A stretch of DNA of 64,000 bases, from positions 5,704,001 through 5,768,000 of the forward strand of contig NC_135252.1 in assembly GCF_964204865.1 (NCBI RefSeq), written 5' to 3'. The notes under the pieces were generated by a model. The model searched no databases and had not been told where the DNA came from. It saw nothing but the letters and a program-made list of their open reading frames with translations. The DNA comes from Styela clava (lineage: Eukaryota). The translations under genes and the position numbers were made by a program. This document shows positions 1 to 58,049 of this stretch, one piece after another (position 1 is the first letter of the stretch; each line of letters begins with the position of its first letter).

Positions 1-9
1 GTACCGTAC

Positions 10-2673
10 CTTAAATTCCTCAGAAATGCTTGCTCTCTCTAAATTCGGTTGTTGAACTGTGTATCCTGGAATGCAAAACAACACCATTAATGTTATCACA
101 GAGCTCCAAAGTAACTAACAAACCTTATAAAGTACCTTATCATGAATTTGACCGTAGAAGAATTTGTTCAAATTTTTATATCTATTGCTTGAATTTATAC
201 TTATAGATTTAATCCATGAACAACTGAAAATTAGATAAAAATTTAGACTAACCTCCATCAATTGTCTGTATATTTGATATGAAGTTTGTTTTAGAAGCTG
301 AGACAGATGAAGCAACTTTTCCCATTTTAAACAAGATTGGGCTGCCTGTCCCTGATAACAATAATTGAAAAAAAAAATCCATTACCAAAGACATATCTCA
401 AAATCCAAGTAATAGCCAAACATAAGAAACGCTTGATAAATACTAAATCCATCCTAATAGTTTTAAACTGGCCCTTTCTATGTTGTTAAAACCACTATTA
501 ATAACTGTCCTTTATGTGCAATTAGTATTTACCTTTCAATGTAGAAGTTTGAAGTGATGAGGCGTATGCTCCCATATTAGGATGCACAATCTTCTTCTTT
601 ACATTAACCTTCTTTGCTTGAATGTTAATAGAAGGTGATGGTTTTCTGTACACATAATTGAAAGAATATTAAATATCTTAGAGAATAGCATATCACAAAA
701 TACACTATTACAAAACCATATCTGCATTACAAATATGCGTGAATAATACCAATACAAATTATTCAACTAATTAATACTGAGGCAAGTACATATAAACAAC
801 ACTCTGTACTGTGGATGAGCATTAAACAAGACATCACTGAAAAAAACAATGTCAAATTGCATACTTTTGAGACATCATGGTCATATTGTTAGTATTCGAT
901 GGAGCCTGGACGACCGCTATACCCATGGATCGAAGTAATGATATTTGTTGCTGTGTTGACATGTCACTGCGAGAATTCAACACATCAACGAGTTTTTTCA
1001 ACGTACTTTCATCCACAACAACAGACTGAGTGGACACCTACAAACAAAAACACCAGAAAATTTACAAGCAATCCCATTGTTACATCAGTACAGGTTTTTA
1101 GATTGAAGTGTAGAGAGAGGCACATATTACAGTGAGGATCACAAATAAAAATTAACCCTTTACTCACTACTCACCTTATTTGGAGTTTGAGTAATGCTAC
1201 TTCCAATACTTGTAGGAGTGGGGCTCTTTGGAAAAGAGTTAACTCTGTGTGTCTGTGCCTTCGTCGCACTTGATTCAACTTTCTTGTAATACGGAAATAC
1301 ACTACTTGATGTTGAGTTTTTCACTACATTCAGACGAACAGCCTGAAGAGGTTGCTGAGAGTTGACAACTGTATGAGATTTCTGATCATTTGATTGAGCA
1401 AACTGGGTGAGATTGGTTGTAGATACCGGAACCGTTTTGAAAGCTTTCATCATGTTACCTTCAGACATTTTCATGACAGGCATTCTGTTGGGAACTGTAA
1501 TTTGTTGTCCAACTTTCCTAACAACACAGTATTTGGATATTTTATCTTTAGTAGGAGTTGAATTGGATCCACCGAAACCTGCCTTGTCTGGAACATCTAC
1601 TCCTCCAGCCTTCTGAACAATTGCAGAAACTGGTTTTAAAATTGACAAAGGTTTCATAACACATTTCGCATTTGATACATTAATCGGTGATGCAAATGTC
1701 ACTGTTTGTTTGAGCAAATTTGAAGGTATCGGCTGACCAAGTGAAGGTTTATTCATTCCAGTTGTTGTTACAGTCATTTCAGCACCAAAATGTTGACTGC
1801 AAAGCCTTAACAAAAATAAATATTACAATACTTGCAGTTATCTTTCTAAAAAACAGAATACCATACAGGTTATTATCATAAAAAAAATCTCAAAGTAGTG
1901 AGAAACTTCTCTATCTAGCATTTGGTAATAGATTTGAAGAGAATATTAATCTGGTGAAAGGAATTCTACATAAAAGACACATAGTTGCACTAAAACGTAA
2001 TATAGTACTTTATTGCACATCCAGGATTTTACTTTGATCCTGATATCCTGAAAATGTGATTAAATTTTGCAAAACGAAAACTAACCTTTTTCCTTTTATA
2101 TTGACCAAGTTCGTACAGCGCAAATTGTCAAAGGACACATGACTGCACAAGGATGCGACAGTAACACTACCTGCACTTGGAGAATGATCTGCCAAGTCGG
2201 ACAGAAATACTTGTTGTTGAATTCCATTCGAGTGTAACTAAAAATATTTTTCATTAGTCGCAAATTTTTTCACTGCATCAAAATATTACAAGGCAAAACA
2301 AACTAGAGAGATCTTAACTTATGTAGAGATCTAGAGTACTAGAGATCTAATTATGTAACTAATACTTGAATATATATCAATATAAAACATATTTCATGAC
2401 ATATATTTACCCTAAAAATATATATATTTATGGCCCTGGCTTATACTGCACTCCATCGTATAAGAAAAAATTCATGCTAACCTTCAATGGAGATGTTACA
2501 ATCGATCTTCCAGAAGTTGAAGAGACAGAAAAGGTTGTGCTACCACATGGTGGAGACTGCTGCAACAATGATGGGGACAGATGATCATTCAGACCTTGCA
2601 ATGTGGTGGAAGAATCCCCAAAGAGCCCATACAGTGAAATTTGTTCTCTCTGTGAGTTGTCCTCATTGTCCAT
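10..2673 (-). CDS. Partial multi-exon gene (3' end outside window); Ser/Thr/Pro-rich protein with a C-x9-C-x11-C-x2-H motif, possibly INO80D/KANSL2-related
   Basis: Phase-consistent GT-AG exons 2482-2673, 2085-2237, 1175-1805, 864-1037, 533-645, 253-351, 10-65 give one open frame (MDNEDNSQREQ...). The motif CSHVSFDNLRCTNLVNIKGKRLCSQH spans exons 2-3 and resembles half of the zf-C3Hc3H repeat (recalled similarity, not searched). Confidence 0.7.
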
Positions 2674-4247: not shown

Positions 4248-4255
4248 TATAATTT

Positions 4256-4457
4256 GGGTCTAGTGTAGTTTCGTACCTCAAGTATTTCTAGTGGATCGTA
4301 GGTATACTTTGGCAAGCTCTATGAAGTGATTGTGTGTGATGTCATTGTGACATAATTTTTGGATGGTGTAGTCAGGTGGGGGTTACGATTGACATGTACA
4401 AAAATCGTTATGCTACGCCCATTAGACAGTTAGAAGTAAGAAACTACACAGAGACCC
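4256..4457. mobile_element. Second, internally deleted copy of the same MITE, in tandem
   Basis: GGGTCTAGTGTAGTTTCGTACC...AAACTACACAGAGACCC; flanked by TATAATTT at 4248-4255 and 4458-4465. Confidence 0.9.
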
Positions 4458-5176
4458 TATAATTTAACATGTTCAATAAGCTATAAAGTTATTAATAACA
4501 CAGACTAAATAGGATTTACATATGCCAACTCGCAGACTAGGGTAATGCAGTAATATAATTTTCTTAAAATTATTGTGTCACACTTCTTTTATTCTTGATT
4601 TCCAATTATTGCCAAAAGGCAGAGGGTGCAAAAAAAACTATTGCTGTATTCTGGTATTGGTTAACTTAAGTATGATATGATTCTGAAATCAACAAGCCGT
4701 GACTTGTCAGAATAATCCTAACCTAAATCAAAAGTGCTGGTGCTGCCATTTCCTTGTCTTAATTTTAATGGGTTAGTTTGGCAGGTTTGAGTCAGTTCAA
4801 TTATGAACTAACTAGTCTTGCTGAAGTGCCTAATACTTGCAGATGATAGGTACATTCGATTCTGAACTACACTGTATTGTGTTTCCGGCATATAATGTGT
4901 TGATTTGAAAATATATTCTTTTCGTCAGTTCGTCGCCATGTGCAATATCATCTACGCTACCGGGAAACAAAGACTCAAGTGACGGCAAATACACAGACGC
5001 CCCTCGAAGATTTTAATGTAGCCTAGTCATGTACACCAACACTAGCTCACATATACGCATAAAAATATTTAAACCAAATACCTCAATATTCCTCATTAAA
5101 TCCATCACTTTTGCTATATTATTAGTTCTCAGCAAATTCGTATTTATCATGGAGGAAGGTGACCAAAGCGAAAAAT

Positions 5177-5189
5177 CCAAGATGGCGGC
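5177..5189 (+). promoter_or_regulatory. YY1-type motif CAAGATGGCGGC
   Basis: Exact match to the YY1 consensus in a CpG-richer patch upstream of the first gene; a related motif (CACATGGCGAC) reads on the minus strand at ~4932-4942. Confidence 0.4.
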
Positions 5190-7892: not shown

Positions 7893-8002
7893 GGACCTCC
7901 TGAAGTATGCGCACCAAGATGGCGCACAACCTGAACTCAGGTTGTGTACCAGGTTATGGTTCAGGTTGTGCGACATCTTGGTGCGCATACTTCAGGAGTA
8001 CC
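7893..8002. mobile_element. 110-bp Merlin-like MITE, 8-bp TSD GTAGGGAC
   Basis: ~45-bp TIRs GGACCTCCTGAAGTATGCGCACCAAGATG / CATCTTGGTGCGCATACTTCAGGAGTACC; TSD at 7885-7892 and 8003-8010; near-identical copy at 49680-49789. Confidence 0.9.
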
Positions 8003-9012
8003 GTAGGGACAACACAACACCAAATATACATAACGATGAAATTAAAATTTTGGCGTAAATGCAGCACCCTTGAGTGGTGATACCATATAATATGAATGGG
8101 CGAAGTATTGTAATACTTATGCTATAATCAGTTTTATTTATTTTGTCTTAAACATTTATTTTATCGTCTATTATGCTGATTGTGGAATCGAAATGAACTT
8201 ATACTATCCTCCACCCGACAAGACCGTTGAACGGATGCTGCACCCTGCTATATGGACCTATAGCGCCGATATCGGAAACGCGAAGCAATATTTTTTAAGC
8301 ACGTGTCCATTGAAATAAATATAATGGCCCGTACTCATCCTTTACTCGATAGCTTATATCCCTGTTTTGCTGTTTAACAGAATTGGACTCCAATTGTCAA
8401 ACCAAACAAAGAGAGAGATCTCATTAATGACCTTTCATTTCAGTCACCCCGCTGTTAATTAATTAAGAATTCGCTGATTTTATTGATTATTTAAAATGCG
8501 TAACTCCCAAACTTTTCCACTGATTGTTTAAATATGCATGCAACTGCATTTTTTGCTATAGGATCATAGGTGAACTATGTATGTCTGAAGAAGTCTGACC
8601 TTGGTGAGACGGAACGTATATACGGAAATATATTTGTGTTAGTGTGCAGCAAGACTCTTGAATCACTCAGTACAGTAGCTATGTTGTATTTTTTCTCAAG
8701 GGATGAATTATCTGTGAAAATATGTCGCAAAATCATTGATTTAAACATTTGTAATCTTCGTTGTGAATTGTCTCGGAAAATCTATATTCTTCTCATTTTG
8801 TACGCTCCCAGAATAGGTTGCTATCATAATTGGGCGTAATTTCATTGATTTTAGAGTATTTGGAACTCCATATCCAAATTTTTAAAAATTATTTTCTCAT
8901 AAAATATTAGAGATTGATAATTATTCGCATTTGGTAAATATTTGAATGCATCAAATAATGTAGTTTTAGGTTCACAGCATTGCCTATGGAACTGTTAATT
9001 ATTAAATGAGAC

Positions 9013-31396: not shown

Positions 31397-31560
31397 GGGT
31401 CTTGTGTGGTTTCTTACCACAATAACTTTTAGTGTAGCATATGCAGTATATGATGTGATTATGAGTTGTGACAACGTAGTGACATAATTTTCGGATGACT
31501 TAGTCAGGTGGGGGTTAGGAATAACACAAGCAAAAAAGGTTTTATGCCCAGCCCACTAGA
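31397..31560. mobile_element. Degenerate copy of the 3797-4457 MITE family
   Basis: Shares GTGACATAATTTT(T/C)GGATG...AGTCAGGTGGGGGTTAGGA...GCCCACTAGA. Confidence 0.7.
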
Positions 31561-33891
31561 CTAATATTGTTACTTTTGTAAGTTTGTTTAACAATTATTA
31601 TTCTCACACAAATTTTGCTTTTTCCAGGGGCATGCTTGTCAGCTTGGAAAATTCCAGTGATTAATAACCACATTCTGACATTCAATATTGCGATGATACA
31701 ACTCAGCAATACCTGAATACTGCACTAACCTGATACAGTGATAAGTAAACATTATCAAACCATTGTCTGTTGGTCAGTCCTGGTCTATTGTGATCTTCTG
31801 CTATTTCTGTATTCTGATACCTGTAGGCCTATATCATTCTTCGACTTATACAGGATTGCGTGTGAGATCTCATACTTTCATCTCTGCATTGAGGCATTTG
31901 TTCGCCTGCTACTGCTACACCACCAATTGCCGCTAAATTAATTTCGGATATTACTTCAATTCATGATAGTTACGGCTGACTTGATTTGTGAAAATGAAAT
32001 CTACTGATATTTCTTCTCTGACAGTTCATCCGACATCGGTCGCGTCATGAGAACATTTGCAGAACTGCGATTCCAGGCGCCCACCAACTTGCTCAAAACT
32101 GCAGAAACTAGTTCTGTTGCAAGCAGGGGTGGTTATCCGGATAATGCTGATCGGTTGAACTGGATTTTTTATTACCTTTTGAAACAACAACAAGGAATGG
32201 AAAAATACAAAGAATACCAACAACAACATAATAACAAAACGTACGTTCCGTATCCAATAAATAGAAGTAAGGTTAGCAAAATGCGATAACAGCTGTAAAA
32301 ATATTCCGCTGAAAATTCAACTGGAAATTTTGTAGACTCTTCCTTACGAAACTTCGGCTGTGTTACGACATTTCAACGTAATTATTTGATCAGTTCATCA
32401 TCAATCGATCAGTTCAATCAATTGTAATCGATGTTCTAACTATCCGGTTAACGGGTTAACTGACCAGATAAAATACAAATATACGAATACATATATCAGT
32501 TATCCTAATTTTATTTATAGTTAAAGTTTATTTTTGCGCAAACATAAAGTTAAAACAGGCAAATGGGGAGACACCTGGAACTCGTCCAACACCTGTAATC
32601 AATTCAAAACGTAATATGCCTAATGTGCAGTTCAGCGTTCGTCAAAATTAGATAGACTTGTCCAAAAATCAATAGATATGTAAATCCTATCGTATCCAGA
32701 TCCCTAGTCACAAGTCAAATCTAGTCACTACCGTTTCTGATTATACTAGATTTTATAAACAATCGTGAAATGTATAAAAAGGAGTATATACTACTACGGT
32801 TAAGCCAATCTTATTTTGAAAATCATAAGTAGTTACGTTGGCATCAATAAGGCCTATTCCAAGTGGGGTTGGGATTCTGGGGGAGAATTGAAAATTTCAA
32901 GATCACAATTTTCTGGGATTAAACAAATTTGAAAAAAGTAGGCTACTAACATAAGCTGAAAATTTGATAAGTACACACATTTATTTCCTGTCAGAAGGAT
33001 GTTTCTCCAACCCTTGACCTCATAAATATTTTTCGATTCTTATTTTGTAAGATTGCGCTCACAAACCAGTTTGAATTTTCATAAAAATAATTTTGTTTCA
33101 AACTATTTAGCCATCCGCTATTCGAAATGATAGCTGACGGCTAGTCTATTGAAAAAATTTTTGGATTTACGTTTAGTTAACTGCAATTAAACTGAAACTC
33201 CACGAAAGACCAAAATGACCATTGAGTTATTTTATTTATACCCAAGTTTTGGAATCACAATTAAAAAATGACAAATAAATAGCAAAAACCACGAAAACGA
33301 TGTAAGCCTATATCGCCATGCCTGAAATTCTGTCTTTGTGAGTAGTCTCTGAGCGGATTTCTAATGTTACAGAAGTAAACAAGAAAGCCGGTGACATCGT
33401 ATCCTTATATAAAAGTTGTTTGGACTCGTCATTATAATCGGAAAAACTTTGGATGAAAGAAAAGTGATTTTATTAAAATTAAAAAATAATATTTTTGAAT
33501 TTATTTTCAAAAAATCATTAGCAGACACTATTACACATATATATCTTAAAACAAACGCTGCTATTTTACTGCTGGGTAAATATATTATTTTAATTTAAGT
33601 ATCCGTATTTATTCAAATTACTTATTCGTGTTTACAAGCAAATTCAAATATAATAAAATTTTAGTATTGACCACAATTGATTTAAGTTCAATGTCTAAAT
33701 CTTAGTATATATTGATCCGACGAGCTAAATATTACAACACAAATTGTAATTACGAGTTCAATCGTATATCATCGTATATGATAAAATGGATCAAAAAAAT
33801 ATGCGTAAAATGGAATATATATATATATGTGAAACAAAATATAGAAAAATAACCGAAAAAACATTAGTAATCCGGAGGTATCAAAAAGTTG

Positions 33892-36800
33892 TCAGTTTTC
33901 CGTAGGATGATCCCATCTTATCATGGTATGATATAAAGACACATTTGCGGCACTCATTACTGTCGTATATGTTGTTTCTGAGTTAAATACCGGAGGTGTC
34001 GACATAACCTGAAAAATACACATTTTGCCGAACAAGCGTATATATCAGACACGTTCTTACCATAAAATAAATCGATAACAAAATAATATTGATTTAATTG
34101 ACTAAAACAGACCTTATAAAGATTATCAGGATTCATTTTATCTTGTCCAAATTCACTCATGGATTTTACTGCAGCATCTCTCCTGTGATCTGTTGAAGGT
34201 GGCGTCTTCCAAGGGTCGTAGTTTGTTTCAACAACAAACCATCTGTGATAATAGTGATAATTAGACTGGCAGCGACAAAGTTTACTAAATTCTAGATGAT
34301 CAGAATAAAATTCGCTTTAAATAAAAAGCAAATACATTAATTAGGATATATATTATCGTTAAGTCCAGTGGCCCCAGAAGGTGAGTTTCCAAATAAAATT
34401 GCAAATAAAAAATGTATCAGCTTTCTTACACTCACTTATGAGAAGTATCTATCATCCTCGTAACATTGACTGCTCCCCATCGATCCCGAACTACTATGGC
34501 CCCTTCTTGTGGTTTCAGTCCACCCACTATGAAATAAATCGGTGCAATGGTCTTTGCGTTTTGTAGCATGTCTATTGCAGATTCATAGTTATCAGCCTTT
34601 GTAACGACCTATGAAATCAGTATATATTTCGTTGTAATTTAATCACCAAAGGAGAAAATTCCCTACTAAATATGGAAAAAAGTGATTGCTATTACAGGAC
34701 CTTTTATATATTTGTGAATCAATGTCAATAAATTGCATCAAATCGTTTTTTGCAATAGAACATACTTCTCTTGCCATCAGCATTGTGGGCCATGATTTTT
34801 CCAAGGCGGCCAAAATATTCTCCCATAGAAACCCAGTGTTACGCTGATCTCCAGACAGGGAAAATTTGTTTGGCTTTGCTGCCGTCAACAACCCGACATA
34901 GCCAACGTATGTTGTTCCAATAAATACAGTCTGCGAAACAACTTACAGTAAATGTTTGCTATGCCTATGAATTAAAAGTACTGTTAAAAAATTTGCAAAG
35001 TTACAGCAGTTTTAAGCATAGCCAATAGTTTAATGAACAACTCTTAATTTATTTGTGTATTTTGTGTAGTTAGTGGGAAGCACTTAATTCACAAACCGCC
35101 GCTGTAAGATATTGTAAAAAAATATCACGGAGGAAAATATATGATGGGAAGCAGGTTTGAGTATATACATATGTTTTGAGTAGTGTTTGCAACTGTCTTA
35201 TGTTGTTCACAGGTGTTTACATAATAAGGTCGCAATAAAGGTCATGCTACAGTAAGTATTACAATATTTCAATAATTAAAGTGATGACACAAGTGAAACA
35301 ATCTAATTGTATGCATTGGTGATAAAGGAAGTTTCATTAAACCAAGCTCAAATCTTGGTGCGTAACATGCAGTATAAATATCCATATTTCAACATAAATC
35401 ATTAAATATGAAAATGTTTGGTTTTAGCATAATATTTCTTTAGTGCAGGGTAAAGATTTATGCCATCATCATATTTACATTTTAAATATTTTTTTTATTT
35501 ACACTTTCAGAAATATAAGACAAAGATGGCAAATGAATAAAACTATAAATTTGAGTTGGGTTGCGCGAGACTAACTTCCTATCTTTTCTCTATGCCTTTA
35601 TGCTAGTGGATCCGTATGCGTATACTGCAAGGATAACGTAGCTGGAATAAATATGACTATTCTATTCAATTAAAGAGTCCAGCTGCACACTAACACAAAT
35701 GTATTTCTGTAACGTTTCGTCCGACCAGAGTCAGACTTCCTCAGACAAGCAGTTTACAACAATGGCTCTGTTGGCTGTTGGCTTGTCTGAGGAAGTCTGA
35801 CTCTGGTCGGACGAAACGTTACAGAAATACATTTGTGTTAGTATGCAGCTGGACTCTTTAATTGAATAGAAGAAAAATACTATGATTGTTTTTCCAGAAT
35901 ATGAACAATAGAAAATAATCGATGGTTGTAATTTCTATTTTAACCTGAATTTTTTTAGATTTAATTGATACAATATTAAAAAATCAACCAACTTCTCCAC
36001 TTTTGTGAAATTCTATCTCGGCAGTTATCTTCCGCAATTCATCTCCAAGTACGTAGTCAAGATTTCTCGCGTGAATTAGCCCACCATTTTCATCAACTGT
36101 GACAATGCTTGTACAAGCTCGACCCCTACATTGAAAAATATCGTGCTTTAATAAATTGTAAACAGCTAATATCAAGCAAAAATATTTACGACTTAATCTT
36201 ACTTGAAACGATTTGAATTCCATGCTGATAGGTCATAAGCTAGGTTTTCTAGTACGAGGTCGCCCAATTTCATGTTGTAAAAGTTACTGATTCCTCGTAT
36301 TTCATCGCCATATGGATGAGGAAAATATCTTTCGAGATCTTTAGCTATTACTTCAGCCAAAGCAATCAATTCCTCGTTTTTGACGTATTCTCTGGATACA
36401 AACAAATAGTTTTTATAGGCTAACCTATCACAATTGATTAAATTTACTTCCATAATGTCAAACAATGACATTCAAGAAGCGAGACTCATAAAATTAATGT
36501 CGTTATTGCGATTTTTATTCCGTGTTTTGTGCAGAAGTTTGATGTTTACCCCCAAGAATATTTTGCGCTCTAATGAGCCAGCTTCCCGGAAGTTACTTCA
36601 ACTTAAATAAAACTGAAAGCTACGTGGTTTTGATATTTCTATTGGGATTTATACACAGTTTTACGTAACTAAAATGTTGCATAATTTTGTACATACGTTT
36701 CAATTTTGTTTCAATGATATAGGAACGGTGTATAGGAATATATATATATATATTCTCTATCCGGCTAATTTTAGTTTTACGAATGTGATCAAGTCATATA

Positions 36801-37256
36801 GCATGAGAATATTTACTTCAGAAGTGTGTCCATTACATCTCGCAGAAGAGATACATCAAAATTCTTCAATACGGGTTCCCACCTGAACAAAATGTTTCAT
36901 CTTAAAAATTGAATTAACGCCGAACAAATTTTTTTAACGTTACTTATTTTATAAAGTTCATTATAACGAGGAATCAATTCCATGCTAAGCACTTTGCAAT
37001 ATCCTGTTGGATATATTAAACGAACAAGAGATTCGAATGAAATTAAAATCCTCTCAGTAGCACAGACCAAACAATAGCCGTTGGTAATGTAATTCGATCA
37101 GATTTACATAATGTTAGCCTACCTTTCCAATGGATCGGCGTCTAAATTTACTTTGAAACGTTTGGCTGGCAGTGCGTCTTTGCACGTAGAGCTTTTCCAG
37201 AGACACAAAGCGATGACAAACACATTTAGGAAGCCCGAAAATCTCATTTCTAACAT
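33892..37256 (-). CDS. NAAA: N-acylethanolamine acid amidase / acid ceramidase family Ntn-hydrolase, copy A
   Basis: 8 in-phase exons; signal peptide MLEMRFSGFLNVFVIALCLW, VNLDADPLERW, nucleophile motif CTSIV...HARNLDY, GYVGLLT, APIYFIVGG, WFVVETNYDPW, DHRR, PVFNSETTYTTVMSA. Confidence 0.9.
35660..35871. repeat. Near-perfect palindrome (91-bp arms, 1 mismatch, 30-nt loop), probably an inverted Penelope-like pseudo-LTR fragment
   Basis: 35660-35750 is the reverse complement of 35781-35871; absent from the paralogous intron of copy B. Confidence 0.9.
35784..35823 (+). ncRNA. Minimal type I hammerhead ribozyme motif (mirror copy on - strand at 35708-35747)
   Basis: UGU-CUGAGGA-A-GUCUGAC(UCUG)GUCGGAC-GAAACGUU-ACA: CUGANGA and GAAA boxes, 7-bp stem II, palindromic ACGU stem III, 3-4 bp stem I. 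Confidence 0.7.
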
Positions 37257-38423
37257 TTGTTATTTTTGTATGACAGTTGTACCTACTCTGTGATATCAGA
37301 AAGAGTTCGCTACCACAGTAAATAAATATTGCAGACAGACAGTGAAAGTAGTAAAGAGTGAAAACTAATTGTCAATGCTGTTGTAATAAAAAAAAATGGC
37401 CATTCCACCGCTTTCACTCAAAAACTCCTTCTTTACAATGTTTTCCGCCTGGATATCTTGTGAAAGATATCTTAAAATCCTCCAGAAATAGACGTACAAA
37501 GTGACTATTTGTAAAATAAGACGCTAGCCCAGAAAACCACAATCAATACGATAAAAGTATATTTTTTTTGTACATAGCCTAGTCATCACGGGCATCACGC
37601 TTTGTTGTATTGATCTCCAAAGCCGGTTAAAAGTTCATTTTGAGACGCATTCAGTGCAATGCTTTATGATTATAGAAGAGAGCAATGCTCAAATATATGA
37701 ACACGTAAGCTAATTTTAAATTTAAATGACGTCATCGGACAAAAAAAAAATTCTTACAGAGTCCACAGAGTTTTTTTGAATAAATTTTTTCACAAAAAGA
37801 AGAATTCTAACAAGATATTCATCATTAGTAAGCTACTAACATAAACTGAAAATTTGATAAGTACACACATTTATTTCCTGTCAGATGGATGTTTCTCCGA
37901 CCCTTGACCGCATAAATATTTTTCGATTCTCATTTTGTAAGATTGCGTTCACAAACCAGTTTGAATGTTTATAAACATAATGTTGCTTCAAACCATCTAG
38001 CCACTTGTCATTTACAATGATACCTGACTGCTAGTCTATTGAAGAATTTTTTGGACTTACGTTTGGTTAACTACAATTCAACCAACTGAAACTCCACGAA
38101 AGACTCAAATGACCATTGAGTTCTTTTATTTATACCTAAGTTTTGGAATCACAATTAAATTGCAATTCAAGTTTACAATCACATTCGCATATAGTGAAAC
38201 TTTGAAATAAACCACAATTGATTTAATTAAATAACTAAATCTTAGTATTAATTGGACGAGTGAAATATTAATTAACACGTGAATTAAAATTAGTGGTCAC
38301 GTCTTATATCATCGAATATGATCAAATGGATCAAAAATTATGCGTAAAATAGAATATATATTTGGAACAAAATATAAAAAGATCAGAAAGAAAATTAGTA
38401 AGATCAACAATCAAAAAAGTTTA

Positions 38424-41400
38424 TCAGTTTTCCGTAGGGTGATCCCATCTTATCATGGTATGATATAAAGACATATTTGCAGCACTCATCACTGTCGTAT
38501 ATGTTGTCTCTGAGTTAAATACAGGAGGTGTCGACATAACCTAAAATATATATATAAATACATTTTGCCGAACAAACGTATCGGAAACGTTTTTACCATA
38601 AAACAAATCGATACCAAAATAATATTGATTTAATTGACTCAAACATACCTTATAAAGATTATCAGGATTCATTTTGTCTTGTCCAAACTCATTCATAGAT
38701 TTTACAGCAGCATCTCTCCTGTCGTCTGTTGGAGGTGGGGGCTTCCAAGGGTCGTAGTTTGTTTCAACGACAAACCATCTGTGATAATTATGATCATTAG
38801 ACTGACAGTGAAAAAGTTTATTTAATTCTAGAATCTAGATGATACCAATAAAATTCGCTTCAAAACCAAAACCAAACACATTAATTACAATATTATCGTT
38901 GAGTCCAGTGGTATCAGAAGGTAAGTTTCCAAATAAAATTGCAAATAAAGAATGAAGCTATCTTTTACTTACTTATGAGAAGTATCTATCATCCTTGTAA
39001 CATTGACTGCTCCCCATCTATCCCGAACTACTATGGCACCTTCTTGTGGTTTCAGTCCACCCACTATGAAATACATTGGTGCTATTGTCTTTGCGTTTTG
39101 TAGCATTTCTATTGCAGATTCATAGTTTTCAGCGTTTGTTATGACCTATAAAATAAGTATATAATTTCATTGTAATTCATTCACCAAAAGAAAAAATTTC
39201 TGACTAACTATGGAAAAAACTTAGCTAGCAAGGTAAAAATTTGACTGCAGAAGATATTTCAAGACAGTTTTATATAAAACTATTATTTATCAAAATAAAC
39301 CGTAACTTATATATGACAATAATTTCCATTTTTGTTCACTTTGAACCGTTGCACATTTGATGCCCAAATTCATACAAATGTTCCAAATTGTTGTTACAGG
39401 ACCTACTATGTTATGCGAATAAAACGAAAGTAGATATACTTAGCGGAAAATAATGCTTTCGTTAATGAGACAAATATTAATTTGCAAACCATTTTATGAT
39501 TGCTCTAAAGCCTATAATAAACATATATCTTAAAATGATGCCGGAAACGAATTACATGCAATAATTCGATTTGTATATTTAAATAAAAAATTAAATACAA
39601 TCGTTTTCGCAATACAATGAGTAATCGTGTTTATATAAATACTCGTTTTCAGAACATACTTCTCTTGCCATCAGCATTGTGGGCCATGATTTTTCCAAGG
39701 CGGCCAAAATATTCTCCCATAGAAACCCAGTGTTGCGCTGATCCCCAGTCAGGGAGAATTTGTTTGGTTTTGCTGCCGTCAACAATCCGACATAACCAAC
39801 GTATGTTGTTCCAATAAATACAGTCTGCAAAACAACTTACAGTAATTGTTTGCTATATATATGTTAAAATACTGTTAAAAAAATTGAAAAATTACAGCAT
39901 TTTCAGCTTAGCCAATAGTGTAATGAACAACTTTTAATCAGTGTGTGTATTTTTGTAGTTGGTTGAAAGAACCTACTTCACAAACTGACGCCGTGCTTTA
40001 AAGTAGAATATTGTTAAAAAATCACGATGGAGATTTTAGGCTGGGAGTTAGGGTTTAGTATATATTATGAGTAGTGTTCGCAACTACCTTTCATGTTGTT
40101 CATAAGTGTTTGAATGACAAGGTTGTAATAAAGGTCACGATACAGTAAGTATTACAATATTATAATAATTGAAGTGGTGAACAAGTGAAACAATCGAATT
40201 GTGTGCTTTGATGATAAATCAGATTTCATCAAGTAAAAGCTTAATCGACTGTGCGCAACATGCAGTAATAAATATCCCTATATCAACATAAATCATTAAA
40301 TATAGAAATATTTGTATTTAACATATTTGCTTCAGCGAAGAGTTTTACAACATAATCATATTTAGATTTCAAAGATATTTCTGATTTACACTTTCAGAGA
40401 AATGAGACAACGATGAAAGAATAAATGATAATATACGATTGTATTCCAGAATATGAAGAATAGAAAATAATATTCGATGGTTGTTATTTCTATTTTAACC
40501 TCAAGTTTTCTATATTTGAGATACAATATTGAAAATCAACCAACTTCTCCGTTTTTGTGAAATTCTATCTCGGCAATTATATTCCGCAATTCATCTCCAA
40601 CTACGTAGTCAAGATTTCTCGCGTGAATTAGTCCACCATTTTCATCAACTGTGACAATGCTTGTACAAGCTCGACCCCTGCAATGAAAAAAGCGCACATT
40701 AATCAATTGTAAAAGCTGATATCAAGCAAAAATATTTACGACTTAATCTTACTTGAAACGATTTGAATTCCATGCTGATAGGTCATAAGCTAGGTTTCCT
40801 AGAACGAGGTCGCCCAATTTCATATTGTAAAAATTACTGATTCCACGTATTTCATCGCCATATGGATAAGGAAAATATCTGTCGAGATCTTTCCCTATTA
40901 CCTCAGCCAAAGCAATCAATTCCTTGTTTTTGACGTATTCTCTGGATACAAAATTAAATGAATAGTTATGACTCATCACAGTCAATTAATTTTACTTTTT
41001 TACTGGGTTTTGTGCAGAAGTTTGATGTTTCACCAGAAATATTTCGCGCTCTAATGAGCCAGCTTTTCGAAAGTCACGGCAAAAAGCTACGTGATTTTGG
41101 TATTTCTATTGGAATTTATATACAGCTTTTCCTGTAACTACAATGCTGCATAATTTTGTACAAACGATTTCGTGATAATTGCATATCACAATAAATTCAC
41201 TTTTGTTTCAATGGTAGAAGCGGTATAGGAATATATATATATACTTATCGGGCTAATTTTAGTTTCACGAATGTGATCAAACCATAATGCACACAAATAT
41301 TTACTTCAGAAGTGTGTCCATAACATCTTGCAGAAGAGATACATCAAAATTCTTCAATACGGGTTCCCACCTGAACAAAATGTTTTATTTTAAAAATCGA

Positions 41401-41754
41401 ATTAACGCCGAACAAATTTTTTCGACGTTACTTATTTTATAAAGTTCATTATAACGAGGAAATAATTTCATGCTAAGCACTTTGCAGTATCCTGTTGGAT
41501 ATATTAAACGAACAAAGGATTCGAATGAAATTAAAATCATCTCAGTTTATCTCAATAGTACAGACCAAACAATAGCCGTTAGTAATGTAATTCGATCAGA
41601 GTTACATAATGTTAGCCTACCTTTCCAATGGATCGGCGTCTAAATTTACTTTGAAACGCTTCGCTGGCAGTGCATCTTTGCACGTAGCGCTTTTCAAAAG
41701 ACACAGAGCGATGGCAAACACATATAAGAAGCCCGAAAATTTCATTTCTAACAT
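38424..41754 (-). CDS. NAAA: NAAA/acid ceramidase family amidase, copy B
   Basis: Same 8-exon structure as copy A, intact frame and CTSIV...HARNLDY motif. Confidence 0.9.
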
Positions 41755-43641
41755 TTGTTTATTGTACGTCAGTTGTACCTAATCTGCAATATCAGAGAGA
41801 ATTCATTACCGCAGCAAATAAATATTGCAGACAGACAGTGAAAGTAGCAAAGAACTACAAAACTAATTGGCAATGCTGTTGTAATCAGAAAAAAAATGGC
41901 AATTCTACCGCTTTTACTCAAAAACTGATTCTTTACTACGTTTGGCGCCTGGATATCGTGTGAAAGATATCTTAAAATTCAGCAGAACAGACGTACAAAG
42001 TAAAAAACCCAAAACCAAAAGTTTGTATTTATCTTTGACTCGCCAGTATGTTGTCTACCATCCGTCGCGGTTCACGGCGTTGAAACAACTGAGATTTGCC
42101 TATGCGGAACACGAGTTCGTCATAAAATATTAAGTACACCTCCGATTTTCGGACGTACGGGCAAGCATAACCGTATTTACACAAAAGGTTGAGGTCACGA
42201 CATAGGTTTGCCTAACAAACTCAACAGATAATATCAGTATTTATAGAGAATTGATTTATAAATTGGCAATCTGTGTAATTTTTATTATCAAACAATGTGA
42301 ATATTTACCCGAATTAAGGACGGAACCCGTGACGTATGACGTAACTGTTGATGCAGAGTAATGACAAAAACAAATCCGCGCCGCAGTTTCGTGCTTTGGC
42401 TGACGGTTATTCGATGTTTGTTTCATAAAACCGGATACCACGCAGTTGTGCTAACTGTACCCAGTATTGGCATCTTGTATTTTGTAGAAAAAGATGAAAG
42501 CTCAAAAAAGTATAATAAATGTGATGAAAGTAATTTTTTTGCACGCTTTGATGTATGGATCTTCAAGTCGGGTAGAAGTAGAAGTCCAATGATTAGAGTA
42601 TAAAACAATAAGAAGATACCAAGGGTATGTAATTAAATGTCCCGCAATATTGGTTTCGTCTTTTGAGATAGACGATTTCGAATTTTAAAGTTATTATTTA
42701 ATTTTAAAATAGCGTTTCTATATAGGGCCTAGAGCACGTGTAACCTTGCCTACCACGAGTACAATAAACATAGCCTGACATAAGCCGATTTCCCTTTGCA
42801 GTATACGGTCGCCTAATGTATGTGTATAGAACAGACCGGGGTGTGGCACCATGATCCAAACGCCCAACATTTAAAATTCCTTGAGCTATTTATTTACCAA
42901 TGAGGTTACTGCATCTCCGGTTGAAGTCACAAAGCCCAAACGATTACATAAATATGTCGCGAAAAAAAATGACAATTTTTGGCCACATATTTTATTGTCA
43001 AGCTAAACTGGACGGGATACACCGGCTGGACATATATACTACCGGATAGTTAGAAATCCCTCATCCTACGATCCCACAATAAAATTCATGCGTAATGGTC
43101 GACAATAGTAACCACTTTTTATATTGACTGGAAATGCCCATTTATTCATGTAACTCCTTGTTAAATTATATCAAGAGCGGCTATATATAACAAATTCTTC
43201 TCCTCACGGAAATATTATGAAGTTTTTTTACAATAATTTTTTAATTCACAGTCACCGAAAAACAATAAAAGGTCACCGTGACCCCCCCATCCCCTCCCCT
43301 ATCCCTTTTTTTTATGTTCAGCATTGTGATCATATCGAAAGGCGTCGAACAACCCACTCAAATGTCAAAATAATATTTTGGTGAACAGTGTTCTGTATTG
43401 TCACCAGTATCGTCATAAAGATTTAAGAACAAAAAGAAAGAAAAGTTAAACAGAAGAAGAAACATTCCCGACAACAGTTTGGTCAATAAGAATAATAATA
43501 TCAATATTTGAAGTAAAATTCATAATACTGTTATGTCATGGCAAAAACAAGGCCACCAAGTGAGTAATGTCACTCTGCATGTAGTAAGCCATCATCTTCA
43601 ATAAAACAAGCTGATTTGTGATGAAATAATAGAGGATAAAG

Positions 43642-49600: not shown

Positions 49601-50935
49601 TTCGGACATCTTCATACCTAGATTAGTTGTAGAAAGACAATATTACAGTATTTCTGTTAATATGAAGATTAAATTTTGTGGACCTTCTAAAGTATGCGCA
49701 CCAAGATGGAGTACAATCTGAACTCAGGTTGTGTACCAGGTTAGGGTTCAGGTTGTGCGACATCTTGGTGCGCATACTTCAGGAGTACCAATTTTGTTTT
49801 ACTGATATATGTAGTAACCAACTAAGGAACAGTCTCACAAACCACCCTTATTAAAGATTACTCATACAATATAGTAAAAAAAGATATCGTGATAATTCAA
49901 AATAAATTTTGTTTGATCTGGCAGCATTTCAATGCTTTTCTGAAATATAATTGTCAATTAAATAACGAAATTATGAAATTTCATGAGTGGAATAGCATAG
50001 ACGAATGATTAATAATTTAACTAATCCCCAGTGGATTCATACACTACATGAATAGCATAAGTTTACTGAAAAACTTTGGCATCAGATCAGTGAACTTTTA
50101 CATTAAGGCTTAAAAACAATGAACATACTTCCTTTTCACACTCAAAGACCACACCTCCAGGGTAAGCGATTCAGAATCGCTTGTTCTCAGTGAAATTTCA
50201 ATAATAAAACTCGAATCAAAAGTGGGATTTCCTTCAATTAATGCGAACTTCGCTTCTTTTTGTATTTCAGGATAATCTTTAATCGCAAGATTGAACTAAA
50301 GAGAGAAAAATGGAATCAATGAGGAAAGGAATAAAAAAACAGATAAAATTTATATCCTACTAAAAAAGCCCTGGCTCCCGCGAAGTAAAATGATTACAGC
50401 AGTTTTATGTTAGAGGCATTGGGATTCAATGAAAGGGAAGGGGAGAAGCCAAATACTCCTAATTAATTACATGTTACAGCGGTTCCTAAAGTATAAATCA
50501 AGATTGGTAAAAATGGGTCGTAGGTCTACAAAACACACTTCCTAGTAAGAACTAGATTAATGCATCATAAGCAGTTTTCTGAAAGTTTCAATAACCACTG
50601 GCATTAAAGTATATGTTGCGAATCCAAGTCCAAGTAGATTTGAGTTTGATGAAATGATGCCAAATGGGTCTTTCAATGCTAAAGGTTGCCGACCTTTGAT
50701 AAAATATCAATAAGCCATTTGATCAATTTCGCATTTCAAAATATTTATCAGTATTTGAAAACTTAATTGTAATATAGTTTACCCATTCTGCACCAGTTGG
50801 CAATGGACTGCACTGTGATGATATAGATTTTCCAAGTCGACCCTGAACAATAACTTGTGCTGTTTTCACACATAGAAACTTTGAGAATTTATCCAAGTCT
50901 TTTTTGTCTTGAGCAGATATCAAAGGTTGTTGCAT
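43642..50935 (-). CDS. ATG13: Autophagy-related protein 13, ~676 aa, 13 exons
   Basis: Exons 50783-50935, 50129-50295, 49480-49617, 48986-49132, 47831-47944, 47453-47594, 46698-46909, 46180-46214, 45221-45599, 44809-45018, 44258-44381, 44064-44186, 43642-43728 (2031 nt). HORMA domain ([26 protein letters not shown]...WFNLAIKD...[19 protein letters not shown]), TSFSTSP, LIR DEFVMV, C-terminal [15 protein letters not shown]. Confidence 0.95.
45630..45971. mobile_element. hAT/Charlie-like MITE in an ATG13 intron
   Basis: GGCCCGCGG/CGGCCC subterminal repeats and terminus AGGTTGCGCACTCCTG. Confidence 0.5.
47135..47292. mobile_element. Partial copy of the 9013-9188 MITE family
   Basis: Shares GACAATTGCACCTG..ACTATTGCAC..TTTGAACCCATACTAACC..TAGATTGAACCCGCGGATATAC..GGGTTCAAATGT. 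Confidence 0.8.
49680..49789. mobile_element. 110-bp Merlin-like MITE, 8-bp TSD AATTTTGT
   Basis: Same family as 7893-8002; TSD at 49672-49679 and 49790-49797. Confidence 0.9.
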
Positions 50936-53259
50936 TGTAAATAGTCTATTAAATAACTATCATGATCTATTATTATTTTAATACGAGATTTCTTCAGTCA
51001 GTCAATGGAGATCAAACTAGCACAGAAATAAAGTACCGTAGGAATTTAACCAAAATTATGCCTTGAATGTCAAAGCATCCAATAATTGCTATATTTATGA
51101 CAATTTGTGTAAAAATACTCCATAACTCTCAAACTTTATCTGCTTCCGTGCTGTCTGATATGATATTTGAACTTTTCGCTTGATTGCACACAAAGGTCAC
51201 CGTGAGAGTCACTTCACAGTGGTGTCAGTACCGGTACTACAGTACTATCCAATTTTTTCAAATACATATTATCCAGTTGTTTAATATTATCAAATATTTA
51301 AGATATTATGGTCATAAATGTACAATAGTTACCGTACATGAAAAACAAAAATGACAATTAGCAAATAAATAATTCACACTATTACTATTAGTAATAAATT
51401 AAGTTAAAACAATCTCATCTTTCATTTTTCAGTACCAGAGTACCGGTAGTCTACCTAGGGCTGATGTATTTATGTACAAAACTTTGGCATAATATAGACT
51501 ATTAACATATTTGTTATCATTCCTATGACTTTCTAAACTAAGTCTGTGTTCCAACACCCTTCTACATCCACTCTCTGACTCTTGTTACATCTGTTTTTGA
51601 CCTCCCCACTTTTAATTTTTTCTTTCACCATTCTTACATACCGTTTTTGACCCCCTGCGCAAAGGGGCCAGGCTTACTGGCAAATGTACCATCGATAATT
51701 CAAATAAAAAACAAAAATATTTCAATGGTTTGAAGAACCCTTGCTGTATTGGCCTGTAGACTACAATAACATAATAATTAATTGTCTTCCAATTGTCTAA
51801 ATTTTGGCATTGTATAAATATACGGTATATAATAGAAGACTTAATATGACAAAACAAAATGTTCTCCGAGTTGTAGAAGGTAAAACGCAACGGTGGCAAA
51901 TCCAAACCTTTTGTGGGTTACACAGCTCTATGCAATGGGATTTGTTTGTTTGTGTGCGATCGCGATGACGTAAAGAAAATAAAAATAGCGCATCTTGTGG
52001 CGGTACCGCGTTGGTGCTTTCTGGTGAGAGGGAGCAATGAGCATATATACAATGAGTGGAAACTTGCAAAGATTTGCTCATTTTGGTATTGTTCCCTGCA
52101 TTTTTTACGTCGTCCGGCTAAATGGTTCGTTGCATATTAAGAAAACGCATTGCTCGCTGCCAAAATCCCTTGCTTCGGCCAGGTCGGGTGCGAAATTGGC
52201 CGTATTGAGGTCTTTAATTCTTCAATACATATTTGGTTTTGGGTTTCGAAGTATGGTATGCTGAAAGCATACAACTATGAGCATATGCTTATTGGGAATG
52301 CATATCTATTAGACAGAAAACGTAGCTACAGTACAGAATATGAACCAGTCGCCCAGTGGAGTGCGGTTATTTATGTATTTATCAGGATAAGGATTTACAT
52401 ATTTATCCCGGGGGAAAGGAAAGCCGATAAGACGGCTTATTCATATGGCGAACCACGGTCTCTCGTCTGGTTACCATTCCAAGTCGGGTATGGGATTAGT
52501 TATATTGTTTGTTTTCGGAAGCATGGACTTGAAGCATGGAAATATGGAGAAAAATATAGAGAATTATAGAATAAACAACCCATTTGAGAGGGAATTGAAA
52601 AATTTATGTAAAGCGTTATTTCAAAAAGAAAATTATATGTTTATGATATGTATTTTATATTTACTAATTTCATTTTTATTGTTTTATATAATGCATTTAT
52701 TAAAATAACCTAATTATGGTATGGATTACTACTGGAATTGAACAAAATAAATACTGAATCATGGATGCAAAATGGAATATGAACTTATTTATATTATATA
52801 TATTATTTTATATTAACCGTAATTAAAATCACTCATTGAGTGAACGAATGAGCATACTGTAATGCTTATTGGGAATACATACCATCTATTAGGCAGAAAA
52901 CTTAACTACAGAACAGAATATGAACCAGCCAAGTGGTGACCTGGGATATTGTATTCATTGATATAGATAGAGATAGTTTATTTTGAAAAGTTCACAATCT
53001 GACAATACAAACAAATAAAAAATGGAGAGTTCTGGAGAGCGAGCAAAACCTTTAAAAAAGTTTAAAACACGATGAGTATTATGTGCCCGCCGTGTTATAG
53101 CAAGTAGTAATGTGTAATGAATTTAATTCACTGTGGTAAATGAATTGCTATCTTTTTATTTGTTATGAGCACACTTGCTGGAACTCCATAATCTATTATT
53201 TTATTTGTTAGTAACACTTTTTATAAAAATATCGAATTGTTTATCATACTTGCATCCAT

Positions 53260-53615
53260 ATTTCGCTCTAAATTCAATGACACTTCCTCTGTATCCAAAT
53301 ATCTATGTACATGACCACATTATTTATTTTTTAGTAATACTTCATTTAAAAGAATCTTAATGTTTATTATACTTTCTATTCTGGTATTTAATCAGTTTTC
53401 TGCCTTGAATTTTATTCTATGATACTTGCTCTGTATCCAAATATCTATATGTATATGAGCACCTCATTTATTTTTTAGTACCGGTAGTACTCATTTAAAA
53501 ATAACCTATTGTTTATCATTGCTATTTTAGTATATTATCAATATTTCGCCTTAAAATTCATTCTATGATACGTGCTCTGTAGCCGAATATAGATATGTAC
53601 ATGAGCACTTTATTT
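53260..53615. repeat. Degenerate ~140-bp tandem repeat, ~2.5 copies
   Basis: CTCTGTA(T/G)CC(A/G)AATAT...ATGTA(C/T)ATGA(C/G)CAC recurs at ~53287, 53429, 53575. Confidence 0.7.
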
Positions 53616-54579
53616 CATATATATATATATCTGCTGGAGAAGGGTCAAATCCTGATCATGTATTAATGTGTGTCACTATCCTCCAAATCACTTGCCAGTC
53701 ATAATCAAGTATTATAATTTGATGGGTTCAAATTATAGTGTATAAAGAAATATACTCATGATTGCTATAATAATAGAATTTTCCTCATCTTTGCTCATAA
53801 AAAACCCATGTCCTATCACATTCATTTTTAGTAGACAAATTTTCCAAATAATAGGTATCCTCGCTAACCCATTTTTATGCAGTTGATATGCAATACATGT
53901 CAACTTATCAGCTGAATAAATGATGATCTTAGGACAAAACATGATTATTTAGTACTTTCCAAATCAAAAATTCTTGTGAATAATGTATATAGTGAATACG
54001 GTATATGAGAGCTATTGAAGAATTTAACACCGAACCTGTTAATTGACCCCAAATGTTGTAACGTTGTCTCCCAGTCAAACACCTGAGCATCTGTTTTTTT
54101 TTTATTATAATTTATATATGTTCATGGTTTGACGAACGAAATAAACTCTCCCTCTCTATTAGTTTAAAATACTGTAAATATTTGCATATCAAAACTTGTC
54201 ACTTATTTTGTTCCATCCATGTATTTTCAACTGTTTTTCCAATAAAACGTACTTATGCCTTACTGTTACTACTGTTATTTGTAGCTTATTATTGTTAGCT
54301 AACTATTTTGAGGTGGGGCGCAAGACTTCACAAATTCTAAAAAGGGGGTGCGGCTTGAAAAGTTTGTATGTAGTAGACCCTAACCTGGTACACATGGTTC
54401 CGGTGTCTACCAACTGGGTTTACATACTTCAATTTGTATTACAGTTGTAAAACAGAAAAAGGCTGAATGTCGGTCTTATTCCATCTGTAAATTTACCAAA
54501 AACTCCACAAAGAATGAACAATGTGCCAGACCATGTGTATTATCGATGAAATGAAAAGTGACATATAAAAAATACAGAA

Positions 54580-54990
54580 GCTGTAGAAAATATTTTGCAT
54601 TCCAAAAAAATTAGTTCACATATTAAATATTTTACATTACAAAAAAATGGTGCTCCAGAAGTATGTGTACCAATATGAAGGTAACTAATTTTGTTCGCCT
54701 ATTTTATATCAAGTTGTGTAAATGGACTAAATTCTATCGGTAGGGGGATATTCACTTGTGTAACACAGACAATTCCCGAACTTTTAATAGAACAAAAATA
54801 AGGAGAATCGTAACCTAACCTGGTACACATACTACAAGAGTACCGAAAAAACAGCCCACATAGTAAAAGCAGTTATGGAAATACTTTACATTACAGAAAA
54901 ATTAATTCACATAGTAAATAGCAGACGCAGGATGTATTTTGCATTGCAGAAAAAATAGCTCACATAGTTAATAGCAGTCCTGAAATATTT
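54580..54990. repeat. Degenerate ~52-bp tandem repeat interrupted by a MITE
   Basis: Recurrent TATTTT(G/A)CATT..AGAAAAA.TAG.TCACATAGT.AATAGCAG. Confidence 0.6.
54649..54844. mobile_element. Merlin-like MITE, TIR-related to the 110-bp family
   Basis: GGTGCTCCAGAAGTATGTGTACCA ... TGGTACACATACTACAAGAGTACC; degenerate A-rich TSD. Confidence 0.75.
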
Positions 54991-55890
54991 CTCACTATTG
55001 ATAACAAAAGTATAATTGCATCCAAATCAACAGTATCTATATGACTATATAAAGAATCGTTAAAATTAAATGATATGCAAGAATCATATTGATAACAAAA
55101 TGTATTCTAATCAATTTTAATATATCTAAAACAAAATCTTCATAAATATTTTTTGTAATTTACAATACATGAAAATATGTGAAACAAACTCAGGTTCTCC
55201 ATTACATAATACACACATTTCATTCCCTGATTTTCTTCCAATTTCTGGGTTTTGTTTTCAAAGGCAAGATACCAGGTATCCCAGAGTAATTTATAGTTAA
55301 AATCAGTATTTTAATAAGTAAACGAATAGCTCGCAGAGCCATGTGATTCATATGGAGGACAGAGCTATGATTGTGAGAGGCCGTGGTTCGCCATGTATTT
55401 AGGCATTCTTCTCGGCTTTCCTCTTCCATGGATAAATATGTAAATCCCATGTTATATCAATGAATAAATACATAAATAACCGCACCCCTCTCGGCGACTG
55501 GTTCATATTCTGTTCTGTAGATACGTTTTCTGCCTAATAGATATGCATTCCCAATAAGCATATGCTCATAGTTGTATGCTTTCAGCGTACCATACTTCGA
55601 AATCCAAAACCAAAGATGTATTGAAGAATTACATACCTCAATACGGCCAATTTCGCACCCGACTCGGCTGAAGCAAGGGATTTTGGCAGCGAGCAATGCG
55701 TTTTCTTAATATGCAACGAACCATTTAGCTGGACGACGTAAAAATGCAGGGAACAATACCAAAATGAGCAAATCTTTGCAAGTTTCCACTCATTGTATAT
55801 ATGCTCATTGGAGGGAGGGAGTGATTTCATTTTTTCGTGAACCAAAATAATATAACAGTATAACATCGTAAGAATAAAAATGATAACAAC

Positions 55891-56135
55891 TACTGTATTT
55901 CCCGGCGAATAAGTCGCTTTTCTAGACCCAAATTTTTTGCCTGATTTTGGGCGAATCTTATGAGGCGAGTATGATCATTTTCATTTTTTTGGTGTCCCTT
56001 ATTATTAAATCCGGACAATAGAATACCTTCGGCGATAGGCGATAGCATCTCCTTCTCATCAGGTTAGTTTAAATATATCGACATTCTCGAGCATCTCCCT
56101 CTCATCAGGTTAGTTTAAATAAATCGACATTCTCG
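55891..56135. mobile_element. Left end of a Tc2/pogo-like element with a 46-bp tandem duplication
   Basis: TA-CTGTATTTCCCGGCGAATAAGTCGC terminus; GCATCTCC.TCTCATCAGGTTAGTTTAAATA.ATCGACATTCTCG twice at 56045-56135. Confidence 0.5.
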
Positions 56136-58049
56136 CGCGGTGAATCTGGAATTTCAATGCTGTGATTATCATATTTGAAGTTGCCGCATTTGTGTGTCTA
56201 TTAGTTGGTGATCATGAGTTTCTCACGAATTGGGCCAATTTGGTGTAGTTTTGTAGTTACATAATAACTAATTGGCTACAATAATACCGTAATTACGATA
56301 ATGTAAGGTATATTTAATTCATTATTTTGACATAAATTTACTCGGTGGAATATTATCGCCGACTTAAGGTTTTTTCCCACCGTAAAACCCTCAAAAACAA
56401 CATACAATCCCAATTAAATCAATGAAGCAACACATTTCGTTTTGTTGAGATTTCGAGATGATGAATGTAGGCTATGTCTCATATAAACACTTTATATGTA
56501 AGGATAAGGATAAGGTAAAATGTACGTATTTATTCCGGGGGAGAGGAAAGCCGATAAGACGGCTCAACCATATGGCGAACTACGGCCTCTGGTGGAAACA
56601 TTATCCCGTCTTTATCCCAGGATGTTGTTATGGAAATTATCCGAGTAAGGTAAAAAGCATGTAATAAATTGTAAGGTAAATGAATGCTGCATTAGCCAAA
56701 CGTCCATATTTCGGATCGAAAACTGTCGACATGTCGAATTTCTACATTTCCGCATTTGGTATTAATTTTCGACACTTCTGCAACTTTAGGATTAGGGTTA
56801 TTCAATTCATTTATTACTCCAGACTGCAGCGCTCCATATAAAAATAACACAAACAAATGAATATGAGCAAAAACAAAAATAACGCAATAAATACAAAAAA
56901 TGCCTGATACGACAATCAGATTCACAGTAGATCTCAAAAAAGAGTTAATACAGTAATCTAAGAGGCCTAAAGTGGAGTGTAGAATCCAAGATAGCCCGCC
57001 ACAAAAAGTATCTGGGAATCAAATAATGATTGTAATAGGATGTTATTGGAGTTCCTGCATCTCGCCATGAACAACCACAGATTTTTTCTATGGAGTGCTT
57101 CGAAAGAGGGAATGTGCCCAGATACCATTTTGTGACGGACACTCTGTGAGTGTCACAGTGAATTACGCGATAAGCATTATTAGTTTTAACTTTTTTTTTA
57201 TATATAATTATTGAAAATCAATAAATTATTATGCAAATTAGTTAACTTGTCGCACTCTCGATATTTCAGTTGGATATTTGACAATTTCGGTAGCATTGTC
57301 GAAAACTGACATATTTTCGAATGTTTTACAACTCCACATTTTATACAAATGCTCCCGATGTCCGGTTTGCTAACGCTCGTGATACGCGTCTGCTGCAGGT
57401 GTAAACTCCATTTTATTCGGTTCAAGTCCTATAATAACAATCTATGTACAATGAGGTCTCGATAAACGATATTTCGCCATGGTGTCCTTTCTGTTATACA
57501 CAAACTGAAACATAATGCAGTGTGTTTGAAACAAACGGCACTTCACCAGCCAACAATCAAAACTCCCAGGCCTAGATGTATCAATTTCTGCAACCCAAAC
57601 ACGAACTACAACGAATGGTATACCAAAAGTTTTTATTTAGGGCATATATATATATATATAGATATATGTATAATTGTAACAGTCATGCATCGGTGCTCAT
57701 CAACCTATAAAGAGGACATTATGATAATAAAGCACACTCTATTACATACACTCCCACATACAAGAATTACAAATGAAATATTACCATTACTTAGTTCGAC
57801 ATATCATGCTAAAGGTTGTTGAGTGATACTATGATAACCAGCTTTTACACTGCTTTAAATTTGAAACGAACAAAATGATTGTCTTGTTTCAACTCTGAAA
57901 AACGACAAACAAGATCGAAATTGAGGGCTCCCACGATGATGAAGAGAGTTACTGCACATGCATAGCTAATGATACGAATCTGTCTGCATCAAGGACATTA
58001 TAATAAGGCTATGCCTACGCTAATTCAAAATGAGAATAAAAAACATAAT

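Follow-up and report, generated by a model that had tools for sequence, protein, structure and literature searches.

An insertion in one of two tandem NAAA-like genes

The window, that is, the whole stretch of 64,000 nucleotides of Styela clava DNA analysed here, contains tandem NAAA-like duplicates at 32937-37502 (copy A) and 37827-42001 (copy B), which are 81-92% alike. NAAA was the best match of the exon next to the insert described below (PDB 6dy2_B, E 2e-08), and Pfam gave no match for this short exon. The following intron of copy A carries a pair of inverted arms of 91 nt each, at 35660-35750 and 35781-35871, with a spacing of 30 nt and a sole mismatch at 35688/35843, as an earlier reading of the sequence alone (hereafter the sequence-only reading) had reported. 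The extent which that reading gave to the element, 35660..35871, proved too short, since a tail of 115 nt had been missed and the insert extends to 35545. The 91-nt palindrome is the stretch in which two arms of unequal length, T1 and T2, overlap, and 16 bases of the 30-nt loop are element sequence. In the element numbering used below, +1 is the ribozyme core's first C. The features of the locus are as follows.

34931..35992, minus strand: intron of NAAA copy A that houses the insert (1062 nt, GT..AG), seen spliced out in X1 and X5 contigs
35993..36124, minus strand: NAAA exon in which the beta subunit begins with the catalytic CTSIV
35545..35871, no strand assigned: whole Penelope-like insertion (327 bp, ends uncertain by 1-2 bases)
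35545..35766, minus strand: long arm (T2, with the tail), covering -22 to +200 of the element
35545..35659, minus strand: tail of about 115 nt, between both preferred element ends
35711..35744, minus strand: minimal type I hammerhead motif with the same sense as the NAAA pre-mRNA, cleavage predicted at 35711/35710
35745-35748 with 35707-35710, minus strand: stem I of the minus-strand motif
35763, minus strand: probable start of transcription of the element, at its position -19, judged from the inner-end pile-up and the extra G
35767..35780, no strand assigned: filler of 14 nt at the joint, absent from the parent element
35781..35871, plus strand: short arm (T1, without a tail), covering -6 to +85 of the element
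35787..35820, plus strand: minimal hammerhead motif, antisense with respect to NAAA, cleavage predicted after 35820
40425..40430, no strand assigned: matching empty place in NAAA copy B

Position 34930 is joined to 35993 in contigs of two probable RNA runs, X1 and X5, which come from two studies and from animals that may or may not carry the insert. This join, with GT..AG on the minus strand, makes the element intronic, at 121 nt from the intron donor, and means that the antisense arm is transcribed first in the NAAA pre-mRNA, in agreement with the earlier proposal. In the X1 transcript contig, exon 1 departs from copy A at 12 positions and the remaining exons match, which reflects either another allele or a mixed contig. 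Between the paralogues, 34757-35541 aligns to 39651-40425 and 35876-36402 to 40430-40952, and the insert is missing from copy B; its presence in copy A only, as the sequence-only reading had stated, was thus confirmed.

The left junction of the insert is spanned by contigs of runs X10 and X11 and the right junction by contigs of X10 and X12, X10 and X11 being possible sources of the window DNA itself. Since contigs of other runs cross both junctions, the insert is not an assembly artefact. No empty allele was seen at the site in the contigs of four runs, contigs being able to show presence and not absence. The insert diverges by 1-2% from other genomic copies. No clear target-site duplication (TSD) was found at the window copy; an imperfect candidate, a 10-of-12 match noted by eye, was rejected.

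The parent element and its copies in the genome

A parent encoding a reverse transcriptase (RT) and a GIY-YIG endonuclease, to which the sequence-only reading had pointed as a possible origin of the arms, was found in the same genome at locus L031. This locus comprises an inverted truncated copy, a pseudo-LTR (pLTR), a 960-aa open frame (4839-7721, stop to stop) and a second pLTR, in that order. Two Pfam domains above cut-off are recognized in the protein, RVT_1 (PF00078) at residues 442-626 (E 2.8e-10) and GIY-YIG (PF01541) at 865-949 (E 5e-05), together with the motifs DKG and YYRYIDD and a C-x4-C-x2-C linker at residue 827. A CX2-5CxxC linker between RT and endonuclease is described in PMC8557442 as a feature of the Neptune and Nematis clades, and the L031 protein has this sequence feature. 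Loci L031-L033 also display the partial tandems and the inverted truncated copy with a one-sided tail. Sister elements with 64-75% protein identity carry a hammerhead motif at the same place.

Both window arms, 35545-35766 and 35781-35871, match both L031 pLTRs at 98-100%; the long T2 arm has 4 differences in 222 nt relative to this copy and the short T1 arm a single one in 91 nt. The genome contains 97 copies of the exact 34-nt core, against none for controls, and a loose core pattern is found 1128 times, against 52 in the control. A search of the genome with a query containing the filler returned at least 51 matches (40 of 1505 candidates scored), L031 among them. By its sequence, the insert is thus composed of two pieces (222 nt and 91 nt) of the pLTR of a Penelope-like element (PLE), placed head to head with a 14-nt filler between them, and that it is a Penelope stump, as first suggested, can be regarded as virtually certain.

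Several related sequences were also encountered. At locus L034 (G000:C3:14331570-14332661), three 360-bp units from the family of the window insert (-57..+304) stand in tandem, each with an exact ribozyme core, an arrangement that would agree with the definition of retrozymes as tandem repeats. Within the window, a solo pLTR piece from a sister family lies in decayed form at 8574-8670; it is 83% alike, and its core GAAA is altered. Also associated with Penelope elements is a second hammerhead family, distant from the first, whose site is GUC; it likewise forms head-to-head pairs and is found at L188, L205, L211 and L212-L236. Other palindromic or inverted repeats in the window (3789-4465, 7891-8004, 31449-31561, 49680-49789 and 52035-56593) apparently belong to unrelated families.

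The hammerhead motif and its predicted folding

Each arm carries an outward-reading motif composed of CUGAGGA-A, a 7-bp stem II with one U-G pair, and GAAAC-GUU. The hammerhead motif suspected on both strands is therefore present at 35787-35820 (plus) and 35744-35711 (minus), and it has the sequence features of the minimal type I class: the CUGANGA and GAAA core, an NUH site, an extra base before helix II and a palindromic 15.2-16.2. Cleavage after 35820, as originally predicted, would apply to a plus-strand RNA and not to the NAAA pre-mRNA, where the site would be 35711/35710.

Conservation was assessed in 11 hand-picked rows, namely the window arm and 10 of 35 distinct motifs. The core columns are invariant in all 11 except at position 7, and 95% of the cells of helices I and II are paired, compared to 31-46% in slid controls. 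In 7 of the 11 pairs of these helices both sides have changed (0/500 shuffles), almost all such double changes coming from two rows of the one distant family, in which helix I is wholly different and the cut site is GUC; pieces of a Penelope-like ORF are present at 7 of the 28 loci of that family. The changes in helix II depend on the alignment register, so that the covariance which the sequence-only reading had expected among genomic copies was found at a strength of about one independent comparison. The hammerhead-model search that it had proposed was unproductive, as no hammerhead family was among the seven Rfam matches up to E 10 in 35000-36500; these were hairpin-type microRNA models only, all below their gathering scores.

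One of these models, RF03760 (mir-2041), aligned to 35692-35839 with 47.6 bits, below its gathering score of 70. Its consensus has letters in common with the arms around the GAAACGUU part, beyond mere hairpin shape, and the mir-2041 hairpin may itself derive from a head-to-head Penelope stump; no paper on the origin of mir-2041 was among those listed by a literature search.

The minus-strand RNA of the insert is predicted to fold as one helix (-174.2 kcal/mol, z -29, equalled by 0/200 shuffles), which is unbroken because the mismatch becomes a G-U pair in that strand. In a lone arm the predicted pairing probability is 0.77 for helix II and 0.11 or less for helix I, and in the NAAA pre-mRNA that of helix II falls to 0.000. 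The earlier idea of a trapped ribozyme is thus upheld at the level of folding predictions, according to which the motif would be locked in a 91-bp duplex of the host pre-mRNA.

Census of the family

The census drew on the DNA surrounding every one of the 97 exact cores, together with that at the first 100 of 177 and the first 100 of 215 matches to two downstream probes. Five duplicates were removed from the last of these sets (100 of 215), giving n = 95, and two from the set of pairs; the census is built on exact-match probes, and pairs were counted only when their inner ends lay within 120 bp. The outer ends of the copies concentrate at two places, +78..92 (50/95) and +195..207 (40/95). Among the loci fetched there are 56 short head-to-head pairs: 43 combine T1 with T2, one is T1/T1, none is T2/T2 and 12 have an unclassified end. 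The supposed 'self-muzzling' of the ribozyme thus follows incidentally from an insertion layout that is common. TSDs of 7-15 bp flank 33 of the 43 T1/T2 pairs, compared to 6% in mismatched controls, and are mostly of 12-13 bp with junction homology included. The window copy is among the 9 of 43 pairs which have no TSD, and PLE insertions lacking a target duplication are known (PMC3846280).

Inner ends pile up at -22..-16 (33/95). An extra G precedes 23 of 55 starts of this kind, where 12.7 would be expected (p 0.0014), as opposed to 3 of the 16 starts further in (3.1 expected). Its distribution is uneven by position, with 9/14 at -19, 1/11 at -20 and 0/6 at -17. A second apparent pile-up, at -166..-184, was set aside as most likely a misalignment at a variable T-rich stretch.

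The whole ribozyme core is spanned by 72 of the 95 copies. With a probe placed further downstream, starts do not pile up at the cut site (+35), there being 5 at +31..36 (one of them misaligned) against 12 at +37..59. An apparent cluster near the cut site obtained with the first downstream probe was discarded, as it lay at that probe's edge and was not prominent with the probe further down. Most templates were therefore uncut. Starts are sparse within the core (6 at +1..30), a pattern that RT stalling could explain.

Routes by which the insert may have formed

For the window copy, the route towards which we incline is priming from both ends of the target. The endonuclease would make a staggered cut, and both target 3' ends would prime reverse transcription near the front of the element RNA. 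One end, primed at +200, would be copied to the RNA 5' end (about -19 to -22), and at the other, primed at +85, copying would have ended at -6; the two cDNAs would then be end-joined with the addition of 14 nt, the RNA template having escaped cleavage by its own ribozyme. Priming at two different fixed sites would leave a tail at one end only. Extended to the family, this would make the stumps an in vivo record of Penelope insertion, in which two fixed sites in the 5' leader are primed by opposite cut ends and the short arms terminate by run-off at a capped start, the cap being copied as an extra G. Reverse transcriptases can copy a cap as an extra G. We regard the family-wide account as evenly balanced between true and false. 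Two internal RT start sites bounding the tail, with both strands cut and extended, are reported in PMC11167929, where the element's protein is required for ribozyme cleavage and cleavage is dispensable for insertion.

A plausible but clearly less probable origin is a single cDNA, primed at +200 and run to the RNA 5' end, followed by a self-primed fold-back to +85, or else a longer palindrome trimmed at its centre. Long palindromes undergo such centre deletion. The short arm is nested in the long arm in 25 of the 43 pairs, the window copy among them, and there is coupling between the inner ends of both arms, which lie within 8 nt of each other and away from the start site in 11 of the 43 pairs against 2.2 expected (0/20000 shuffles); both inner ends fall at the start site in 10 pairs, against 5.9 expected. 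Fully independent priming does not predict this coupling, so that for some members of the family fold-back, or subsequent trimming at the centre, contributes as well, and self-priming has been proposed for Penelope-like insertions (PMC3846280). In the other 18 of the 43 pairs, however, the T1 arm contains sequence that is missing from T2, with zero overlap in 10; such arms are impossible from one cDNA and are therefore not fold-backs of it. A fold-back would also have no reason to stop at +85, a position which ends arms without partner overlap as well. The window copy itself fits either route. The sequence-only reading had also entertained a non-autonomous retrozyme-like unit. A unit of this or of the MITE-like foldback kind, mobile as a whole element of 212-327 bp, would account for the length of the inverted repeats and for the abundance of arm copies, but it is extremely improbable, given that the inner ends and the filler vary across the 56 pairs, that among the at least 51 matches (40 of 1505 candidates scored) the filler is covered by the window locus only, that the units are not tandem and their TSDs range over 7-15 bp, and that the arms are parts of the pLTR of an autonomous element. 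A non-LTR retrozyme requires at least two tandem ribozyme-bearing units, and the window locus is a single head-to-head pair, whose joint and filler are unshared among the copies sampled; a MITE or foldback DNA transposon should have fixed ends and a fixed TSD, and here the joints differ. Duplications of the DNA-transposon type, to which the sequence-only reading had looked as evidence against a Penelope origin, were likewise not seen, the family having variable ones of 7-15 bp in 33/43 pairs and the window copy none.

There is little reason to expect that the hairpin is used by, or relevant to, the host, whether as a substrate of Dicer, ADAR or RLRs or through a promoter inside NAAA. A 91-bp helix is indeed predicted in the pre-mRNA, and the Penelope promoter lies within the pLTR and is able to drive downstream exons (PMC2377424); in this variant an RNA begun at 35763 would be devoid of the antisense arm and have a free ribozyme. 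Against such a role, the insert is of recent origin, at 1-2% divergence from other copies, it occurs in one paralogue only and is one among dozens alike, and even in an isolated arm stem I is predicted to form poorly (pairing probability of at most 0.11). In PMC4209133, moreover, metazoan minimal hammerheads did not cleave as monomers and did so little as dimers. Very probably the insert has no function for the host, being most likely a neutral passenger which leaves with the intron. As a whole, the picture of head-to-head pLTR pieces in an NAAA intron, likely placed there by two-ended priming and with a ribozyme predicted to be locked, is one that we hold with good confidence.

Comparison with known systems

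The layout has already been published, both as an inverted truncated copy with a one-sided tail (PMC8557442, PMC3846280) and as opposed minimal hammerheads (PMC4209133). The closest parallels are the inverted-pLTR insertions of Pen2a_Av of Adineta (PMC3846280; Fig. 2 legend of PMC8557442), which share the truncated inverted copy placed head to head, the tail at one end, family target duplications near 10 bp and a parent with an RT, a C-terminal GIY-YIG domain and partial tandems. The window arms differ from these in being reduced to pLTR pieces without an ORF and in having no clear TSD, and the tail is of about 115 nt, as compared to 30-40 nt in the published Penelope-like insertions. With the minimal hammerheads of metazoan PLEs described by Cervera and De la Pena (2014, PMC4209133), the window motif shares a 7-bp helix II with one unpaired base before it, G10.1-C11.1, a short helix I and the palindromic 15.2-16.2; its cut site is instead GUU (GUC in the distant family of the S. 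clava genome). In Schistosoma, minimal hammerheads on opposite strands occur in pairs 100-700 bp apart (PMC4209133), whereas the window cores are just 42 nt apart and each pairs with the other's complement.

The in vitro work of Frangieh et al. on PAc, the Poseidon element of Anolis carolinensis (2024, PMC11167929), offers similar findings in the two preferred ends bounding the tail, the AT-rich flanks and the use of uncut RNA as the main template. The S. clava parent differs in its Cys linker of the Neptune/Nematis type and in the location of the element ends and ribozyme before the first ATG, those of PAc lying within the ORF; in contrast to the in vitro data for PAc, the evidence for the S. 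clava family is genomic. Non-LTR retrozymes (bioRxiv 10.64898/2026.07.22.740005) are also non-coding, derived from PLE pLTRs and provided with a type I hammerhead, but as described they are tandem repeats with one ribozyme per unit, and the window locus is a single inverted pair. Among the papers listed by literature searches, which include few subscription papers and were judged by title and opening of the abstract, none applies twin priming or a cap-derived G to Penelope elements.

Implications

Alone, the window locus carries little weight, being one of dozens of similar stumps. The stump family is useful because the insertion cycle of Penelope elements is only partly worked out, and it also cautions that a palindrome in an intron, when it bears twin hammerheads, is usually a stump of this sort. 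It is young, it has relatives with open reading frames, and it yields exact predictions, namely RT starts near +85 and +199 and an RNA start near -19, which are open to the published in vitro assay. If the reading of two-site priming with a cap-copied G is true, it would map a promoter from DNA alone. The relatives of the window copy in the S. clava genome likely record how such elements insert.
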